A stretch of DNA of 13,674 nt, from positions 1 through 13,674 of the forward strand of contig CAZUNO010000045.1 in NCBI GenBank assembly GCA_964621445.1, written 5' to 3'. Under the pieces are notes generated by a model, which worked only from the letters and a program-made list of their open reading frames with translations, made no database searches and was not told where the DNA came from. The DNA comes from Candidatus Hadarchaeota archaeon (GTDB lineage: Archaea; CAYQAE01; CAYVLA01). A program made the position numbers and the translations under genes. Below, in pieces: positions 1-13,674 of this stretch (the stretch's first letter is position 1; every line of letters begins with the position of its first letter).

Positions 1-66
1 GGAAAAAGAGCATACGTCATAATCATCAAAGACTAACCAATTATGCAACACAGCAGTTTTTTACTC

Positions 67-74
67 TATTTAAG
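67..74 (+). promoter_or_regulatory. Putative archaeal TATA box (TATTTAAG) for the abiE operon
   Basis: TATA-like 8-mer ending about 25 nt before ATG 100, the usual spacing for a leaderless or short-leader archaeal transcript. Confidence 0.45.
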
Positions 75-83
75 ACGTATATC

Positions 84-99
84 GTTGGATGCATCTAAC
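84..99. promoter_or_regulatory. Near-perfect 16-bp palindrome, candidate AbiEi operator
   Basis: GTTGGATGCATCTAAC; reverse complement GTTAGATGCATCCAAC (one mismatched pair). It lies between the TATA-like box and ATG 100. AbiEi-family antitoxins are known to autorepress via promoter inverted repeats. Confidence 0.5.
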
Positions 100-900
100 A
101 TGGATGAAAGAGACGTAAGGGATGTTGAAGCACTTTCGCCGACTGAGCAAAAGATATACTCAAGGACATATTCAAAGAGGGTTGTAGCCACGGAAGACGT
201 CAGGGATGTCGTGGGAAGGGGGCATAAGTGTGCGGATTATATTAATAATCTGCGAGAAAAGGGCTATTTCCAGAAGATCAGGAAAGGATTGTATGCAGTA
301 GTTCCTCCCAACTTGGTGAATACGGACGAAATGAGGCCGGACAAGTTCATTGTGGCTAGTAAGATAAGGAACCAGTACTATATTTCTCATCATTCGGCCC
401 TTGAGCTTCAGGGCTTGGCCCAGTCCGTATTCAGCGTTGTTTGGATCACTAGTAAGAATCCTGGTAGGTCATTCTCCTTCCAGGACATTGATTACAGGAT
501 CATAACGACAAAGCACTTCTTCGGCTATGAAGCGATGGACTACTTAGGGGTTCCTATTAAAGTGAGCGACACGGAAAGGACGGTATTGGATTGCATCAGG
601 AATCATAAATATGCCGGAGGTTGGGAGGAGCTGATGAAAAGCCTGGAAAACCTCCCCTACCTGGATTTGGAGAAAATAATGGATTACCTGGGCAGATTCA
701 ATGAAAAGAGCTTGTATCAAAAAGCGGGATTTGTTCTTCAATCTCTAGATATCGAAATGTCGAGATATGTATTGATGAGATCTAAGGAAAAAATAGGAAA
801 ACGGACCTATTACCTAGACAAGAATAAGGATTCCTTCTATTTGAAGGAATGGAACCTGATGATACCAAAGAGGTTCAAGGAGTGGGTGACGGTTGCCTAG
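100..900 (+). CDS. abiEi: Type IV toxin-antitoxin antitoxin, AbiEi-family transcriptional regulator (266 aa from ATG 100; ORF track starts at 43)
   Basis: N-terminal wHTH-like 'LREKGYFQKIRKGLYAVVP', 'YYISHHSALELQGL' and 'KVSDTERTVLDC' motifs typical of AbiEi. Its stop overlaps the downstream toxin start by 8 nt. ATG 100 is preferred because of the TATA and operator positions. Confidence 0.88.
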   Translation: MDERDVRDVEALSPTEQKIYSRTYSKRVVATEDVRDVVGRGHKCADYINNLREKGYFQKIRKGLYAVVPPNLVNTDEMRPDKFIVASKIRNQYYISHHSALELQGLAQSVFSVVWITSKNPGRSFSFQDIDYRIITTKHFFGYEAMDYLGVPIKVSDTERTVLDCIRNHKYAGGWEELMKSLENLPYLDLEKIMDYLGRFNEKSLYQKAGFVLQSLDIEMSRYVLMRSKEKIGKRTYYLDKNKDSFYLKEWNLMIPKRFKEWVTVA

Positions 901-1615
901 ATTAGACAGACGGTTCTTTGAGGAAATGTCAGCCACTACCAAATTTCAAGTAGATATACTGGAGAAGTCCTATCGCTTGACCGAACTCTTGCGGGAAATA
1001 ACCGATACAAAACTTGGTAAGCTACTAGTTCTCAAGGGAGGTACTTCAATTAATTTTGTCTATTTCGACATCCCAAGATTGTCGGTGGATATTGATATGG
1101 ACTATATTGGGTCTGTGCAAAGGGAAACCATGTTGGACGATCGAGAGAAGATCGGCAAGGTCCTAAGGAGGATATACAAAAATCTGGGCTACGAACTTGA
1201 TGAAGACCAGAGATATGCGCTCCAACGTGATAACCTATATTACGAAAACTCCGCCCGAAACAGAGATAGGATAAAGGTTGAGACGAATTACCTCAAAAGG
1301 ACCACGATATTGAAAACCGTCAATAAGGTTTTCAGACATCCCTTTCCTTACAAATCATTTGAAATAAGGACACTAAATCCGAATGAGTTGTTCGCGCGGA
1401 AATTGGCTGCTTTGGTGATGAGAACTGCGCCCAAGGACCTTTATGATTTATACGACTTGCTACGAAGTGATATCTCCTTTGACAGGGAAATACTGAGGAA
1501 ATGTTTTATTTTCTCTTTGTGTCTTAGTGGGGACCCCAGGGAAGCGGATTTCAAGGTATTTGACCATATCACGGGCCATGACTTCTCAGATACCGGTGAT
1601 CTACACCTTAGATAG
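893..1615 (+). CDS. abiEii: Nucleotidyltransferase toxin, AbiEii/AbiGii family; C-terminus probably truncated
   Basis: 'LVLKGGTSIN', 'RLSVDIDMD', 'IKVE' and 'ELFARKLAAL...PKDLYDL' motifs. Coupled to abiEi (TTG 893 overlaps TAG 898-900). The last ~12 residues run into a HAD-like remnant. Confidence 0.88.
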   Translation: MPRLDRRFFEEMSATTKFQVDILEKSYRLTELLREITDTKLGKLLVLKGGTSINFVYFDIPRLSVDIDMDYIGSVQRETMLDDREKIGKVLRRIYKNLGYELDEDQRYALQRDNLYYENSARNRDRIKVETNYLKRTTILKTVNKVFRHPFPYKSFEIRTLNPNELFARKLAALVMRTAPKDLYDLYDLLRSDISFDREILRKCFIFSLCLSGDPREADFKVFDHITGHDFSDTGDLHLR

Positions 1616-5883: not shown

Positions 5884-5905
5884 CCTTATAGAATTCTTTT
5901 TTAGG
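5884..5905 (+). promoter_or_regulatory. Candidate TATA box(es) for the tRNA gene
   Basis: CCTTATAG at 5884-5891 and TTTTTTAGG at 5897-5905. The second would put the transcription start near 5925, the first base of the leader repeat. Confidence 0.35.
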
Positions 5906-5924
5906 TAGGAATACAGAAAAAGCT

Positions 5925-6037
5925 GTGCCGGACACACAAAGCCCAGGTGACAGAGAGGCCAAATGTGTCCGGTTGAAAACCGGATAGGCTCTACGGCCTC
6001 GAGGGTTCAAATCCCTCCCTGGGCGCCTGTCCGGCAC
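5925..6037. repeat. Perfect 10-bp inverted repeat flanking the tRNA (GTGCCGGACA 5925-5934 / TGTCCGGCAC 6028-6037)
   Basis: Read directly: the two 10-mers are exact reverse complements, 6 nt before and 2 nt after the tRNA body. Confidence 0.9.
5941..6025 (+). tRNA. Class II tRNA with serine-type body and GAA (Phe) anticodon, 85 nt, CCA not fully encoded
   Basis: Acceptor GCCCAGG 5941-5947 / CCTGGGC 6018-6024; discriminator G6025; D stem ACA/TGT with AG and GG in the loop; anticodon stem TCCGG 5968-5972 / CCGGA 5980-5984; loop TTGAAAA with GAA at 5975-5977; variable arm AGGC-TCTACG-GCCT; T arm GAGGG-TTCAAAT-CCCTC. Confidence 0.93.
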
Positions 6038-6038
6038 G

Positions 6039-6048
6039 TATTTTTGTT
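6039..6048 (+). terminator. Oligo-T tract, candidate archaeal terminator of the pre-tRNA
   Basis: TATTTTTGTT immediately after the 3' arm of the inverted repeat. Confidence 0.45.
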
Positions 6049-6656
6049 GACGTTCTAACCATAAAAACGTATCGTTTGATACAGATAAGGATAGAATATG
6101 GTCACAACCAAAAAAATCCAAAAAACAAGCCATATCCGAAATTTCGGATTTGAATGCACGAGGTCAAACCAATCCTCTTTATGGTAAGGTGAAGGACTAT
6201 TTGTATCCTGGGAGACACCGATCTGCCCAGAGTATTTCTCCATCTTCTTTTTTTGAAAGTGGGCTGCCCTTAGTTTGTCTGCCTAGTTGAAAGATATCCG
6301 CATCTACGGAATTTTCTGTAGATCCCCATAGTGTTTCGAATTCCTGTAGCAGCCCAAAATACGTGGCATTCATTTTCCGAAAATCGGCTTTTTAGGTAGC
6401 CTACCCAAGGCCAACCAGCGAGGCATAGATATCGGGTCTCCCCCAAACCCCCAAGAGTCAACCATCAACCAAAAATCCCGTAAATTCCTTCTATGAACGA
6501 TAATATTCAGAAAAATAACATCATAAAAAGCACCAATATCCTCGTAATTAGGGCTTCTTGTCCCGCTATGGCTTGGACATTTCTAGCTTTTCTTCCCCCT
6601 CATTATCAAGCATTTCATCAAGGCCAGCGAAAATATTACTCAAGGCATCTTTAACA

Positions 6657-7674
6657 TGATTGAATCCGAAAATTATTTCACCCCCTTGTTTGTGGTGGTG
6701 AGGTGGTTAAGCTTACTGACTTGAGGATTAGGTGGTTGATGAGGCGGAAAGAGGGAGGGGGAGGACGCACAGGAAGATGGCCAGGGTGTATGGTATCACG
6801 CCTAGACAGCTCCAATAGCTGTGGGCTTAGTACAGGTCCACTGAAGAGATGTCCACTCTCAAGAAACCAGGTAGACCCAAGAAGCCTCCTGACCCGGTGG
6901 AAGAGGAGATGGTTCTGGGGATGTGGCACATGCACCAGGTGTGTGTGCGGTCATACTGGAACACCTGATCCAGAAGGAGCATGACAGGAGGATACCGCAT
7001 AATTGTATTCACAGGATCCTTATGAAGCATGGCTATCCGGTGCGATAGGAAGCATTCCATGTCTCTGTGGCATGGATTGGTACGAGATGAACAAGATCGA
7101 TCCACAGCTCGGAGAATGGCTGTTGACGGTGCAGGACGACTCCTCGAGGAAGATCATGAATTTCGGCGTGTTCGATAACGCTACCTCCAGGCATAGCGTG
7201 GAGGTTCTAGACAAAGCTATCCGTAGGCGCGGTGCTCCGGACGAGGTGATCACCGATAAGGGTGTACAGTTCTACGCTATGGATGGCAAGTACAAGAAGA
7301 ATGGGTACAACGAGTTCGAGAAGTACCTACAGGCCCACGGCATTCGGCACATACTGGCCAGGACCAGGCACCCCCAGACCAACGGTAAGATAGAACGCCT
7401 CTTCCAGATCATGGCCAGCCAGGTAAGCTACCACACATCTCTCAACGACATGATAGAGTAGTACAACACCAAGAGACCCCGCATGAGTCTAGGGATGGCC
7501 ACACCGGAAGAAGCCTTCTGGAACAGGATGAGCATGGAGAGAATGCTCGGACAGACCAGCCACATACTCAACCCAGAACACTTCACCCCAGACCAAACAC
7601 CGAGATGAAGACATGACCAACACCAACCAAAAAACACCAAACACAGAGGGGCGAAATAATAATGGGATAAGACA
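6657..7674 (+). mobile_element. Degenerate IS481-family insertion sequence (about 1.0 kb)
   Basis: Imperfect terminal inverted repeats: left ...ATCCGAAAATTATTTCACCCC (core 6672-6684), right GGGGCGAAATAATAATGGGATAAGACA ending in ACA at 7674 (TGT on the other strand, typical of IS481). They enclose a decayed DDE transposase. No target duplication seen; the left boundary is approximate. Confidence 0.8.
6703..7608 (+). pseudogene. IS481-family transposase pseudogene (HTH + rve integrase core)
   Basis: Pieces across frames: MVKLTDLRIRWLMRRKE / MARVYGITPRQLQ*LWA*YRST...LKKPGRPKK / IPHNCIHRILMKHG / RKHSMSLWH / DWY...VQDDSSR...ITDKGVQF...HPQTNGKIER...E*YNTKRPRMSL. Several frameshifts and in-frame TAG stops (e.g. 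7459-7461). Confidence 0.88.
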
Positions 7675-10026: not shown

Positions 10027-11157
10027 CTAACGGAGAAGATGTTTGTTCCCCACCCTCACCCTTTCTAGTCCCTGGTCCTGGGCGACCTCCTGGGCCCTGA
10101 ATGCCAGGTCCCTCTCGGTTGTTGGTAGATCGCTCAGTTTGTAGGCTGGGGCAAAGGCCAGCAGCGAGTAGGGGATGGAGGGATCGATCCCGCTTATGAA
10201 CCGGGCGATCCTAGCCACCTCCTCCACATCTATGTACCCGGGCACCAGGAGGGTCGAGGCCCGCAGGAAGGGCGGTTCCTCCCTTCGGGAGTGGAGCTCT
10301 CCTAAATGCCTGAAGTTGTCGTAGGTGGGCTGGTTGTCCAGGCCGGAAAGGACCCGGTTCAGGTTACCGTCCCGGGCCTTGAGGTCGAACTTGATCCCGC
10401 CCCCGCTCTCCAGTGAGATCTCGGCGATCTTCTCCAGCCAGCGAGGAGAGAAATTGCCGTTGGCCTCCAGACATATCCTGAACATCCTGTCCTCCCCCCT
10501 CGCCTTGTCCCTCAACACCCTGGACACCCTGTGGACGAAGGGCGACTGTGGCTCGGGGGTTCCCCCGAACCAGCACAGACAGGTGATGGACTCGTCGGAC
10601 AGGACCTCCTCCACCAGGTCCTCGGCGTCAAGCAAGGGACGTCCCTGTGATGCCATCCGGTGCCAGCTGGTGTTTTGGCAGTACAGGCAGTCATAGCAGC
10701 AGGTGCCTAGGAACACCGCGGCGTTGTTGTATCCCGTATCTCCCTGTGGGGTCTTGGCGTAGCTCGGGTACCCCGAGCCCGTTCCGCCCGCACAGCACCA
10801 GCCGGGGATGCAGTTGGTGGGGTGAGGGTCCCTGTACCAGGACCCCACCGCCGTCCGGGAAGTTCCAGGATCGCGCACCAATTTTCCCTCAACGTTCCGG
10901 GAGAGGTTACAGTAACCACGTTCCCCCTCGGGGATTCGACAGTTGTTGGCGCAGTGAGTACACTCCGCCCCCTCCCGATCCCTGGGAACGGCCGGGGGAA
11001 GTCCGATGGCTCTTCTGCTACGGGCGTGGACCCCGTCCGCGATCTCGAGAGCCCTATCGGGCCGGTCGCGAATGCAGTTCAGGCAAACTGATAGCACTCT
11101 GGAGATCTTGTCGCTCTCCCGGCCACAGAGCTCACATCGTCCCTGTATCCTAAACAA
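10027..11157 (-). CDS. Radical SAM protein, PflA-like/AmmeMemoRadiSam-related family
   Basis: CxxxCxxC in GTCCYDCLYCQN; 'CWFGGTPEP', 'LEANG', 'IKFDLKA', 'STLLVPGY', 'YSLLAFAPAY' and 'VRVGN' motifs; N-terminal CxxC..CxxC and CxxCxxxC...GYC Cys clusters. Confidence 0.9.
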   Translation of the reverse strand: MFRIQGRCELCGRESDKISRVLSVCLNCIRDRPDRALEIADGVHARSRRAIGLPPAVPRDREGAECTHCANNCRIPEGERGYCNLSRNVEGKLVRDPGTSRTAVGSWYRDPHPTNCIPGWCCAGGTGSGYPSYAKTPQGDTGYNNAAVFLGTCCYDCLYCQNTSWHRMASQGRPLLDAEDLVEEVLSDESITCLCWFGGTPEPQSPFVHRVSRVLRDKARGEDRMFRICLEANGNFSPRWLEKIAEISLESGGGIKFDLKARDGNLNRVLSGLDNQPTYDNFRHLGELHSRREEPPFLRASTLLVPGYIDVEEVARIARFISGIDPSIPYSLLAFAPAYKLSDLPTTERDLAFRAQEVAQDQGLERVRVGNKHLLR

Positions 11158-11622
11158 GTTCTTTCCAGTCCCTCCCCGATCTCCCCCTTCGGCCGGGGTT
11201 TATAGAATGCTGTCCTTTGGGATGCAAGTGAGAGCGTTTCCTCGATGGGGTTGTTGACTTCCCGTGTTTCGAAGTCGATCTAAACGAGATCCCAGCCAAG
11301 AATCTTGAGCCTCTGAAACCATAATCAAAGGGCGGATTATCGGGGGCACAATGACCTGAGAGCAAGGAGCAGCCTTCAAAACCGAACAATTCAGAGATGT
11401 GGACCCTCTTCAAGCTGATCTCGCCGACATCCAATAATCGGTCTAAACCTGGCCAAAACTGGGAGCGATACCAGGACTCAGGGAGACCCAAAGGGAGTAG
11501 CAACGACAATCCTTGTTCCTATGAATGGAGAGAGAATGTAAGCCTGGTGAAGGGTTATCAAACCTATCATTGGCTAAAACCCGCACATATTTTTAGTTCC
11601 TCTGTGCTAGGGCGAAGACAGA

Positions 11623-12237
11623 ATGAAGAGAAGGACGTTATTGGCCATCCTTATTCTGGTGCTCGTCCCCCTTCTAGGCACCGGGATATACTACTACACC
11701 GGGGATGGGACCGATGAGGACATCAAATCCATAGCCAGCATGTTCACCGGCGGCCGGCTGGAGATAGAGCTGTCCACACGGGATGCCCCCTTATCCTGGG
11801 AGAATTCCGCACCCGGCCAGGTTCATAACCAGAGCATCACCGTGAAAAACACCGGTAGCCTTAAGGTGGATCGTCTCTACCTCAGGGAGGCCAACTATAC
11901 CTGGAACGGCTCCGCCGATCTGTCCGAGGTGGTCCAGGTGTCGTACTTCAAGGAATATATTGATGGGGAGCCGGTGGGTTACCTTGAGGGCGGTAGGTAT
12001 GAGGAGCAGCAGGGGCTGGGGAACGGAGACGGGGTTCTTACCTTAAGCGAGCTGTTTGCCGCCTCTACGTCCGGTAACCCTGGATGGGATATATCCAGGG
12101 ATGTGGATCTGGAGCCGGGGTCATCGTACAGGCTTGAAATGGGTTTCGAGTTCCTGGAGTCGGCTGGTAACCGGTACCAGGGCTGCTCGTGTAGTTTTGA
12201 TTGGCTGGTGATGGCCGCTCAGGGAAACGAGGAGTAG
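11623..12237 (+). CDS. TasA/CalY (camelysin, peptidase M73-like) family protein
   Basis: Basic-hydrophobic N-terminus, then 'FTGGRLEIEL', 'ENSAPG', 'ITVKNTGSL', 'LEPG' and 'FEFLESAGNRYQG', the typical TasA-family motif order. Confidence 0.75.
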   Translation: MKRRTLLAILILVLVPLLGTGIYYYTGDGTDEDIKSIASMFTGGRLEIELSTRDAPLSWENSAPGQVHNQSITVKNTGSLKVDRLYLREANYTWNGSADLSEVVQVSYFKEYIDGEPVGYLEGGRYEEQQGLGNGDGVLTLSELFAASTSGNPGWDISRDVDLEPGSSYRLEMGFEFLESAGNRYQGCSCSFDWLVMAAQGNEE

Positions 12238-12256
12238 GACTAGGCCCGGTTCAGGC

Positions 12257-12601
12257 TCATTGGAGGAGCAGTATGATCCTCACGTTGGAGACCACGACCA
12301 TGAACAGCACCAGGTCGGCGAGAACCAGGAAGTACTTGAGCACCTGGCGGTGTTCCCTGATGGTGAAGAGGGCACCGATAACGATTGCCGATAGCATCAG
12401 TTTATAGGTCAGGAAGGGGGTGACCCCCAACGACAGGACGCTTCTTACTGCTGGATTTATCTCCCTGGCCTCACCGAAACCCGCGTCAGCTCCGTGGGCC
12501 ATGAGTGTGGTTCCCGTGTCCCATAGACCGAATAGGAGGATGAAGATCACCAGCAGGAAAATATTGGTCTCCTGAACCACTCTCCATATTCGGTGGGCCA
12601 T
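12257..12601 (-). CDS. DUF5658-like small membrane protein
   Basis: Three hydrophobic helices with 'WDTGTT', 'EINP', 'YKL' and terminal 'VVVSN' motifs. Confidence 0.7.
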   Translation of the reverse strand: MAHRIWRVVQETNIFLLVIFILLFGLWDTGTTLMAHGADAGFGEAREINPAVRSVLSLGVTPFLTYKLMLSAIVIGALFTIREHRQVLKYFLVLADLVLFMVVVSNVRIILLLQ

Positions 12602-12734
12602 GGAGACAGGGAGGGAAAGTTTGTTATATACTGGGCGGTTGGGATTCAGCCCTCGTCTAAAGCTTGTCGCACCTTTCCTGTAAACCTCGCAAAAGCACCA
12701 TGTCCCGGGGCGCCGAATTCACATGGAGCGCCCT

Positions 12735-13674
12735 TTACTCACCATCTTCGACCTGATAGAGGTACTTCACATCCCCGTCCAGGATGTAGTAGCTGTCCCC
12801 GCTGTGAATTATGGGTTTGAACGTCTCCTCGGCCACCGATGACAGGTCCTCGACGGACTGGACGCGGATAACCGCCCTCTCGATATCCTGAGAGGGCTCC
12901 CCTCCCTCCACTATCCTGTCCCTGACATCCGAGCTCAGGGAGTCCAAGGGGTCGCGGGGCATGGATCTCAGTTTCATGGCCGAGAATTCCGTCCCCAGGA
13001 CTAGAATCCCGGCTGCCAACAGGCTCATGATGCGGAGGGTGGAGACCTTGAGACCGAGGGACATGAAATTGACCCGTTTTGGGGATGATTCCCGGTGATC
13101 AATCACCCCTTCATCCGGAGGCGAGGAGTCCTCAAAGGTCAGCTTGTTGTCCCCCATGACCGTCTTCAGCGTTGGGGTGTATTGCCGCTGCACGGTCTTG
13201 GTTCCGGCCGAGAAGGTCACCTCGATCCGGGGCTGGACGGTATAGGTGTAGGAGGACCATCTCATGCCGGTTTCCTGCTCTATGGTGTCTATCATCTCCT
13301 GGATATCGCTCAGCGGCACCGAGTAGGTCTCGGTGAACGCCTTTCCCGCCGTCGTCTTCTCCTCGATAATCGTCATGCTTTTCTTCCATTCCCGTCCCTC
13401 CAGGGTCCCTGACACGCTGTACCTAATCTCGGGGGTCTCGATTTCGATGTCCCCCTCGCTGGTCAGCTGGTAGGACATTTCGATGTCCACTCCTTCCACC
13501 AGGGTCAGGAACGCGGTCTCCCCGGGCTCCAGGACCTCTCGGCCCCCGTACAGGGTGGAGGGTTCGACGTAAACCTTGCGGTCGAAGTCCAGGTTCTGGG
13601 AGTACCTCATGTCCACGACCCGCTGGTTTGTTTCCACCGGCCAGGTAAAGTTTAATGATACGGCGTACACCGAG
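12735..13674 (-). CDS. DUF5305-like protein, 5' end outside the window
   Basis: The ORF is open to the window edge. Extracellular beta-rich region, one TM, then cytoplasmic 'IRVQSVEDLSSVAEETFKPIIH...YYILDGDVKYLY' tail as recalled for DUF5305. Confidence 0.65.
   Translation of the reverse strand, partial: SVYAVSLNFTWPVETNQRVVDMRYSQNLDFDRKVYVEPSTLYGGREVLEPGETAFLTLVEGVDIEMSYQLTSEGDIEIETPEIRYSVSGTLEGREWKKSMTIIEEKTTAGKAFTETYSVPLSDIQEMIDTIEQETGMRWSSYTYTVQPRIEVTFSAGTKTVQRQYTPTLKTVMGDNKLTFEDSSPPDEGVIDHRESSPKRVNFMSLGLKVSTLRIMSLLAAGILVLGTEFSAMKLRSMPRDPLDSLSSDVRDRIVEGGEPSQDIERAVIRVQSVEDLSSVAEETFKPIIHSGDSYYILDGDVKYLYQVEDGE

Follow-up and report, generated by a model that had tools for sequence, protein, structure and literature searches.

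Here we describe a transfer RNA (tRNA) gene, at positions 5941–6025 on the forward strand of a 13,674-bp stretch of Candidatus Hadarchaeota DNA, that joins a serine-type body to the phenylalanine anticodon GAA and belongs to a conserved family in which that anticodon is fixed and the tRNA is clamped by a helix between its leader and trailer. The stretch (the window) is the entire contig C45 of a 3.21-Mb genome, G000 (89 contigs, 96% complete). An initial annotation had singled out the gene as a candidate Phe-to-Ser mistranslating tRNA; the observation is real and stronger than it first appeared, since it concerns a conserved, clamped, serine-type family rather than one gene. Judging from sequence, we tentatively favour the reading that these genes encode a maintained accessory tRNA(GAA) that would be charged with serine and could insert it at UUY codons.

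A serine-type tRNA with the anticodon GAA

ARAGORN called a single tRNA in the window, at 5941–6027(+), with the anticodon GAA at raw position 35. The Rfam tRNA model RF00005 matched 5941–6025 over its full length (1–71) with 55.1 bits, where the gathering score is 29 (E = 8.2e-10). This was the sole gathering-level Rfam match within the window, and no match to any other Rfam family around the gene was better than E = 0.2. The acceptor stem, GCCCAGG/CCUGGGC, forms seven Watson–Crick pairs (G1-C72, C2-G71 and C3-G70 among them) and is followed by U8 and G9, a D stem of A10-U25, C11-G24 and A12-U23 plus G13·A22, an anticodon stem UCCGG/CCGGA closing the loop UUGAAAA, a 5-bp variable stem AGGCU/GGCCU with one U·G pair, the T arm GAGGG-UUCAAAU-CCCUC and the discriminator G73 at 6025. 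The minimum free energy (MFE) of 5941–6025 is −44.1 kcal/mol, compared with −26.5 ± 3.2 for shuffled sequences, none of which (0/200) matched it. The 85-nt intact cloverleaf, long variable arm, G73 and GAA anticodon that had first been described are thus confirmed by ARAGORN, Rfam and the shuffle-tested fold; the accompanying statement that all stems are Watson–Crick paired holds apart from the variable-stem U·G and the D-arm G13·A22. The window copy shows no defect and none of the marks of a pseudogene: all its stems are paired, and U8, A14, G18-G19, U33, G53-C61 and the T loop UUCAAAU are kept. Its geometry is canonical, with a 7-bp acceptor and a 5-bp T stem, as had been claimed, and unlike the 8/4 or 9/3 arrangement of allo-tRNAs. 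The features and their coordinates are collected in Table 1.

Table 1. Features of the window locus, members of the family and class-II GAA tRNAs of other archaea (unprefixed positions are those of the window)
Feature	Location	Strand	Basis or remark
T-rich TATA-like box CTTTTTTAGG, candidate archaeal promoter	5896–5905	+	29 nt before leader helix
Clamp leader strand GUGCCGGACA	5925–5934	+	Perfect pairing with 6028–6037; in MFE fold of 5920–6046
Unpaired leader spacer CACAAA before G1	5935–5940	+	Sequence, fold
Class-II tRNA, serine-type body, G73	5941–6025	+	ARAGORN, Rfam, fold; family model R1, 137 bits
Anticodon GAA	5975–5977	+	Within 7-nt loop UUGAAAA, 5973–5979
Long variable arm	5985–6000	+	16 nt: U44, 5-bp stem, loop CUAC, C48
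CC after G73, then U, not A	6026–6027	+	In all six copies
Clamp trailer strand UGUCCGGCAC	6028–6037	+	Perfect pairing with 5925–5934; in MFE fold of 5920–6046
Oligo-T run, candidate terminator	6041–6045	+	Sequence
Family member, window copy	C45		R1, 137 bits
Family member, G000 paralogue	C15:2241–2324		R1, 126 bits
Family member	G003:C198		R1, 111 bits
Family member	G002:C69		R1, 64 bits
Family member, decayed	G003:C30:3005–3111 (L074 1501–1607)		R1, 55 bits
Family member, decayed	G000:C85:159–261 (L032)	−	R1, 32.5 bits
Class-II GAA tRNA, unrelated archaeal family	L092 152–235	−
Class-II GAA tRNA, unrelated archaeal family	L093 143–226	+
Class-II GAA tRNA, unrelated archaeal family	L096 140–229	−

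The anticodon fits neither of the serine patterns, NGA and GCU. The gene shares GAA with tRNA-Phe and has none of its class-I body, short variable loop and A73; tRNA-Leu genes of G000 end in A73, whereas this gene ends in G73. The body itself is Ser-like. A covariance model, R1, was built from the two G000 copies C45 and C15 with their flanks; across 150 archaeal genomes, 145 of them outside the phylum, its scores outside the family did not exceed 75 bits, and nine of the nine top outside loci that were fetched hold a tRNA-Ser at the match. The D arms of archaeal tRNA-Ser genes, A10-U25 included, also resemble those of the family. The pair A10-U25, initially called unusual, is therefore not odd, because tRNA-Ser genes of other archaea carry it too. 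Together with G73 and the long paired variable arm, these likenesses uphold the Ser-like body that had been proposed. In the passages available to us of a review of tRNA identity, serine identity is independent of the anticodon and G73 is a LeuRS antideterminant in H. volcanii.

An assembly error at 5975–5977 is unlikely as the source of GAA, and we rejected it. A contig from the likely source run (X1) covers the tRNA gene with zero differences. A contig from a second sample (run X2) has zero differences over 5903–6343 and one at 6344, and a 193-nt contig of a separate study begins at 5972 with its listed differences (6101 and 6107) both downstream of the tRNA. The mismatch between body and anticodon is not an assembly slip, because the X2 contig agrees and a paralogue and two sister genera have GAA as well.

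The gene family and its flanking clamp

Searching the five species genomes that make up the whole phylum in our collection, R1 found six members (Table 1). The paralogue on C15 is 80% identical to the window copy and has the same anticodon arm. Relatives retain the anticodon: GAA is present in four of the four members that still have an anticodon loop (C45, C15, G003:C198 and G002:C69), within UUGAAAA in both G000 copies and CUGAAGA in the G002 and G003 members. Both G000 copies have U32 and A37, unlike tRNA-Phe, and all four intact members have G73. The two remaining copies have the marks of pseudogenes. The copy on C85 has lost the 5′ strand and loop of its anticodon arm, and that on G003:C30 has lost the 3′ anticodon-arm strand and the variable arm; both still have the acceptor stem, T arm, G73-CC and trailer. 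The G002:C69 member carries a run of ten Ns inside its variable arm (L038/L065, about 1544–1553) and its acceptor strands mismatch at two positions; its scaffold may join halves of two copies, because the gap splits the gene.

No member was found in G001 (99% complete, of the same genus as G003) or in G004, where the best R1 matches are ordinary tRNA-Leu and tRNA-Ser genes. Scans of public collections, which may leave out records near the window's genome, added none among the loci examined. The six metagenome loci carry bacterial tRNA genes or drew no tRNA call and were judged unrelated, five of the six from genome contigs were bacterial tRNA-Ser genes or gave no tRNA with ARAGORN, and two viral scans gave no match. 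Among the genomes searched, the family is confined to one archaeal family, in which it spans three genera.

The members have changed in a way that preserves their folds. Standard pairs fill 96.4% of the pair cells across the four, and in 13 of the 35 pairs both sides have changed, a number that no shuffle reached (0/500); controls with the pairing slid gave at most 4 pairs. Pairs of the variable-arm stem (helix 5) are among those that covary. The C15 and G003:C198 copies share a 152-bp block of 85.5% identity that runs from about 40 nt before the leader to the exact end of the trailer strand, compared with about 69% identity between the SerRS (seryl-tRNA synthetase) genes of G000 and G003; the genes flanking these two cassettes are unrelated. 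The ACAATnCTTTTGATTTCTTGG box is fully conserved in C15 and the G003 orthologue, 28 nt before the leader, and the G002 member has ATTTTT 27 nt before its leader. This T-rich box is a candidate promoter. The initial annotation had suggested that the gene is maintained rather than decaying, which the compensatory changes and the conserved upstream box support. Taken together, these patterns suggest that selection preserves three things in the family: the intact fold of the cloverleaf, the anticodon GAA and an expression cassette of its own.

Every member has a leader:trailer helix of 9–11 bp, with the trailer following G73-CC. Across the four members this clamp is 97.5% paired, with double changes in 2 of 10 pairs, and it covaries from A-U to G-C in two members. 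The duplex energy is −21.2 kcal/mol for C45 and −22.6 kcal/mol for C15; the 32 other G000 tRNAs with enough flanking sequence for comparison reach −14.7 kcal/mol or weaker. The next-strongest complementarity in the genome, at −14.7 kcal/mol, belongs to a tRNA-Leu(CAG) at G000:C1:98017–98099. The clamp is specific to the GAA family. Exact copies of its two 10-mers number only four and five across the genome, and only at the family loci do they stand as pairs; a looser regular expression gave 2,574 chance matches. A transposon with terminal repeats was considered and rejected: inspection by eye showed no target-site duplication, and the clamp motif is not repeated across the genome.

At the junction of clamp and tRNA, the fold, read by eye, shows two helices separated by an internal loop of 6 nt by 3 nt; the leader spacer is 3 nt in C15 and G003:C198. 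A bulge–helix–bulge motif, or a permuted or split tRNA, was considered because in G000 and G002 the trailer contains a repeat of the anticodon stem's 5′ strand. These were likewise rejected: no such motif was visible by eye, and the junction lacks the pair of 3-nt bulges, spaced by 4 bp, that would define it. The apparent covariation of clamp with anticodon stem breaks in G003:C198, where the trailer reads UGCCCGG and the anticodon stem UCCGG; the clamp therefore pairs with itself rather than with the anticodon stem. A terminator scan flagged 6019–6034 together with the T tail at 6041–6045, at a number of such matches equal to the shuffle level, and the oligo-T run is not conserved in other members. 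Ordinary 5′ processing is possible because an RNase P RNA is present in G000, and the clamp may modulate maturation.

The family probably derives from tRNA-Ser. The CUGAAGA loop of the G002 and G003 members differs from the Ser-GGA loop CUGGAGA, taken from a tRNA-Ser of another archaeon, only at position 35; because the difference is a single base, it fits an origin in a Ser-GGA duplicate through G35A as the simplest route.

Charging, decoding and the alternatives

The resident tRNAs and synthetases of G000 frame what the GAA tRNA could do. Anticodons of intron-bearing resident tRNAs were read by eye, as the intron mode of ARAGORN gave many doubtful calls. The resident tRNA-Phe (C19:16867–16957) has an intron, A73, a 5-nt variable loop GUGUC and the anticodon loop CUGAAGA; tRNA-Ser genes, all with introns, lie at C8:70382 (GGA), C6:118610 (UGA) and C9:91782 (CGA). 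Separate Ser(GGA) and class-I Phe(GAA) genes therefore exist, as read by eye, and a recent one-off mutation of a sole Ser(GGA) gene was rejected, both on this ground and because GAA is shared across genera. The tRNA genes of G000 are mostly interrupted by introns, several at non-canonical sites (D loop, 29/30 and 30/31). Among its 37 Rfam tRNA matches, none read as Ser(GCU), Asp, Asn, His, Gln, Cys or Trp; the assembly either lacks these tRNAs or has them in a form too broken up for detection.

G000 has one SerRS gene (G000:C8:50617–51873) and one for the alpha subunit of PheRS (phenylalanyl-tRNA synthetase) at C5:49412–50323, with a candidate gene for the beta subunit at C25:23446–23922, and no extra synthetase paralogue was found in any genome of the family, each having one serS-level and one pheS-level match. 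A dedicated synthetase is thus neither needed nor found. Reassignment of UUY codons was also rejected: across 55 high-scoring segment pairs with homologues from other archaea, 432 TTY codons align mainly to F (33–42%), L and Y, with S outside the top six. The genetic code is therefore unchanged.

We propose the following course, in which transcription, processing, serylation and decoding are each predicted from sequence features. Transcription of the cassette alone would yield a roughly 120-nt RNA with its ends paired to each other, from which RNase P and a 3′ nuclease would free the tRNA, with the clamp probably slowing or gating its release. The cell's single SerRS would then charge it, since a tRNA is recognised as a serine acceptor by its long variable arm and G73, irrespective of the anticodon. 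The charged tRNA would compete with tRNA-Phe at UUU and UUC, inserting serine at a low or conditional level.

Several points weigh against this reading. Serine at phenylalanine codons is a harsh substitution, so the lasting retention of an active mistranslator would be surprising, and the conserved GAA with the Phe-like loop CUGAAGA equally suits recognition by PheRS. The gene is dispensable, because G001 and G004 live without a member, and two copies (C85 and G003:C30) are plainly dead. Three others have small defects that may reflect relaxed constraint: C11·A24 in C15, G53·A61 in G003:C198 and the two acceptor mismatches in G002. The covariation itself comes from a model-fitted alignment of only four sequences.

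The alternative that fares best is charging with phenylalanine, in whole or in part, which we regard as unlikely. PheRS would accept the class-II body through GAA, and the genes would supply extra tRNA-Phe or dual Ser/Phe acceptors with little mistranslation, which would explain why the gene is tolerated. GAA is indeed the one feature kept in every member while the stems change, and two members have the exact loop of the resident tRNA-Phe. According to the review passages, Phe identity depends critically on G34, A35 and A36, and PheRS mischarges a yeast tRNA-Tyr that carries GAA. Set against phenylalanine charging are G73 in place of A73 and a C or U at position 20, A73 and G20 being Phe identity elements in yeast and human, albeit not confirmed in the passages of the review at hand. 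The class-II arm and D arm are Ser-like, so that SerRS should still accept the body, and A37 and U32 in both G000 copies are unlike tRNA-Phe; the rules by which archaeal PheRS recognises its tRNA are, moreover, poorly known.

Somewhat more doubtful is a function that does not involve decoding, with the RNA a tRNA mimic that remains clamped and might, for example, act as a decoy or sponge that draws off a tRNA-targeting toxin or nuclease, regulate PheRS or SerRS by binding to it, or serve as a dedicated donor of aminoacyl groups outside the ribosome. The conserved, family-specific clamp (−21 to −23 kcal/mol) and the conserved CC-U after G73 speak for it, as does the position of three members in regions rich in toxin–antitoxin genes (AbiEi/AbiEii; MazE-like plus PIN; MNT-type), since toxin classes include tRNA-targeting enzymes. 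Yet no gene is common to the loci and the toxin–antitoxin types differ; such genes are common in accessory regions, so their proximity may be chance. A decoy, moreover, would have no need of a flawless 7-nt anticodon loop that includes U33, of a T loop or of the full set of tertiary-pair positions, and neither the unpaired spacer of 3 to 6 nt nor the internal loop at G73-CC seems to stand in the way of normal end processing.

Least probable of the three is a non-functional or selfish relic, that is, a tRNA-Ser cassette that was duplicated, acquired an anticodon mutation leading nowhere and now drifts and decays in accessory DNA, its apparent conservation reflecting recent transfer between genomes. 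The two decayed copies and the single defects of three others would suit it, as would the patchy distribution (absent from G001 and G004), the unrelated flanks of the orthologous cassettes, an rve integrase fragment about 1 kb downstream in the window and the sporadic mismatched-anticodon class-II tRNAs of other archaeal genome bins. Against these stand the 13 of 35 compensatory pairs and 96% paired cells among members that are 80–85% identical, where drift would break stems. GAA is invariant, the promoter-like box and clamp are conserved, and the window copy is free of defects; target-site duplications were not seen by eye, and the clamp motif does not recur across the genome.

Genomic surroundings, wider occurrence and known systems

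The copies sit in accessory regions with differing types of toxin–antitoxin genes, and no neighbouring gene is common to the loci. In the window, 43–1615(+) holds an AbiEi-like gene, a weak match that falls short of the Pfam cut-off, and after it a gene for an AbiEii nucleotidyltransferase toxin (96.6 bits); the two form a type IV toxin–antitoxin pair about 4.3 kb upstream of the tRNA. MazE/AbrB-like antitoxin and PIN toxin genes lie just upstream of the C15 copy (L031 1339–2008), and the G003:C198 copy is followed, 116 nt downstream, by an NTP_transf_2 (MNT-type) gene (L064 1727–2248). The integrase fragment in the window is a 152-amino-acid open reading frame at 7003–7461(+) with an rve integrase core, probably from a transposase. 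Farther on, 10027–13670 encodes a radical SAM protein (−), a camelysin-like Peptidase_M73 (+) and a DUF5305 protein (−), with no evident link to the tRNA gene.

More widely, we searched 401 archaeal genomes for the loop CUGAAGA with class-II spacing, using a GUN anticodon pattern as the control. The GAA pattern occurred at 14 places, which comprise the G002 family member, three class-II GAA tRNAs elsewhere (Table 1) and ten that were judged, partly by eye, to be intron-bearing tRNAs. One of the three has a Leu-like acceptor GCGGGGG with A73 and two have G73; none is clamped, and each genome has a canonical tRNA-Phe elsewhere. The control gave 30 places, and the five examined with Rfam were two bacterial-type tRNA-Tyr genes, one class-II-like GUC tRNA and two ambiguous cases. 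The GUC (Asp) tRNA, at L098 74–151(+) in another archaeal bin, scored 49.8 bits in Rfam with its acceptor stem partly aligned. The bacterial-type class-II tRNA-Tyr genes (L101, on the 1.5-kb contig G267:C59, and L102, on the 9.3-kb contig G020:C11) stand in tight tRNA clusters within archaeal bins, and their contigs are probably bacterial DNA binned with an archaeon.

A more speculative extension of the favoured reading, which we think improbable as it stands, is that the cassette forms a gated mistranslation device, with its own promoter and controlled release of the clamp, that would place serine at phenylalanine codons only under, for example, phenylalanine starvation, stress or infection, possibly in connection with toxin–antitoxin islands. 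The class-II GAA tRNAs that occur sporadically in three further archaeal families might then belong to a wider, unrecognised class of archaeal tRNAs whose identity and anticodon disagree.

Natural tRNAs mismatched in this way are rare, the known cases coming from bacteria (allo-tRNAs and Streptomyces tRNA-ProA), yeasts and a human allele. No archaeal case was found in the titles, abstracts and some passages of the literature consulted, although supplementary files may hold some. Among the closest known systems are the resident tRNA-Ser genes, which share with the GAA family a class-II fold, G73, a GCC... acceptor and a 5-bp variable stem, and with the C15 copy the 3′ acceptor end CCCCGGCG. They differ from it in having introns, G10-C25, serine anticodons and no clamp, whereas the family is intronless with A10-U25.

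Allo-tRNAs reportedly combine serine identity with varied anticodons. Both they and the GAA family mismatch body and anticodon and occupy accessory or patchy positions; allo-tRNAs are bacterial with an 8/4 or 9/3 fold, and the GAA family is archaeal with a 7/5 fold. As natural bacterial tRNAs in which body and anticodon may disagree, they are described in the parts at hand of Mukai et al. (NAR 2017, PMC5389517) and PMC7609411. Unlike allo-tRNAs, the GAA family conserves a single anticodon across its members and has the leader:trailer clamp.

Streptomyces tRNA-ProA is a natural, conserved mistranslating tRNA with a dedicated synthetase paralogue, ProRSx; the genomes of the GAA family have no such extra copy beside their one SerRS and one PheRS alpha. 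In CUG-clade yeasts, a stably inherited class-II, serine-type tRNA-Ser(CAG) decodes another amino acid's codon. There the meaning of the codon has shifted, whereas in G000 UUY still aligns with Phe, Leu and Tyr in homologues, alongside a normal tRNA-Phe; the yeast tRNA is treated in the part of PMC2246281 available to us. A further parallel is the human tRNA-Ser-AGA-2-3 G35A variant (anticodon AAA), which, in the portions of PMC12993449 and PMC9956149 at hand, inserts serine at phenylalanine codons. It arose by the same formal change as Ser-GGA to GAA, but it is a polymorphic allele in about 2% of people, has A34 and lacks a dedicated cassette or clamp, whereas the GAA family extends across genera and has G34.

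Set beside these systems, a family that spans three genera, keeps a 7/5 fold and has its own cassette and an end-to-end clamp makes it testable whether cells keep mistranslating tRNAs on purpose. It likewise opens to test how the toxicity of such a tRNA is checked and how archaeal SerRS and PheRS weigh body against anticodon, and it offers a natural scaffold for work on codon reassignment in archaea.

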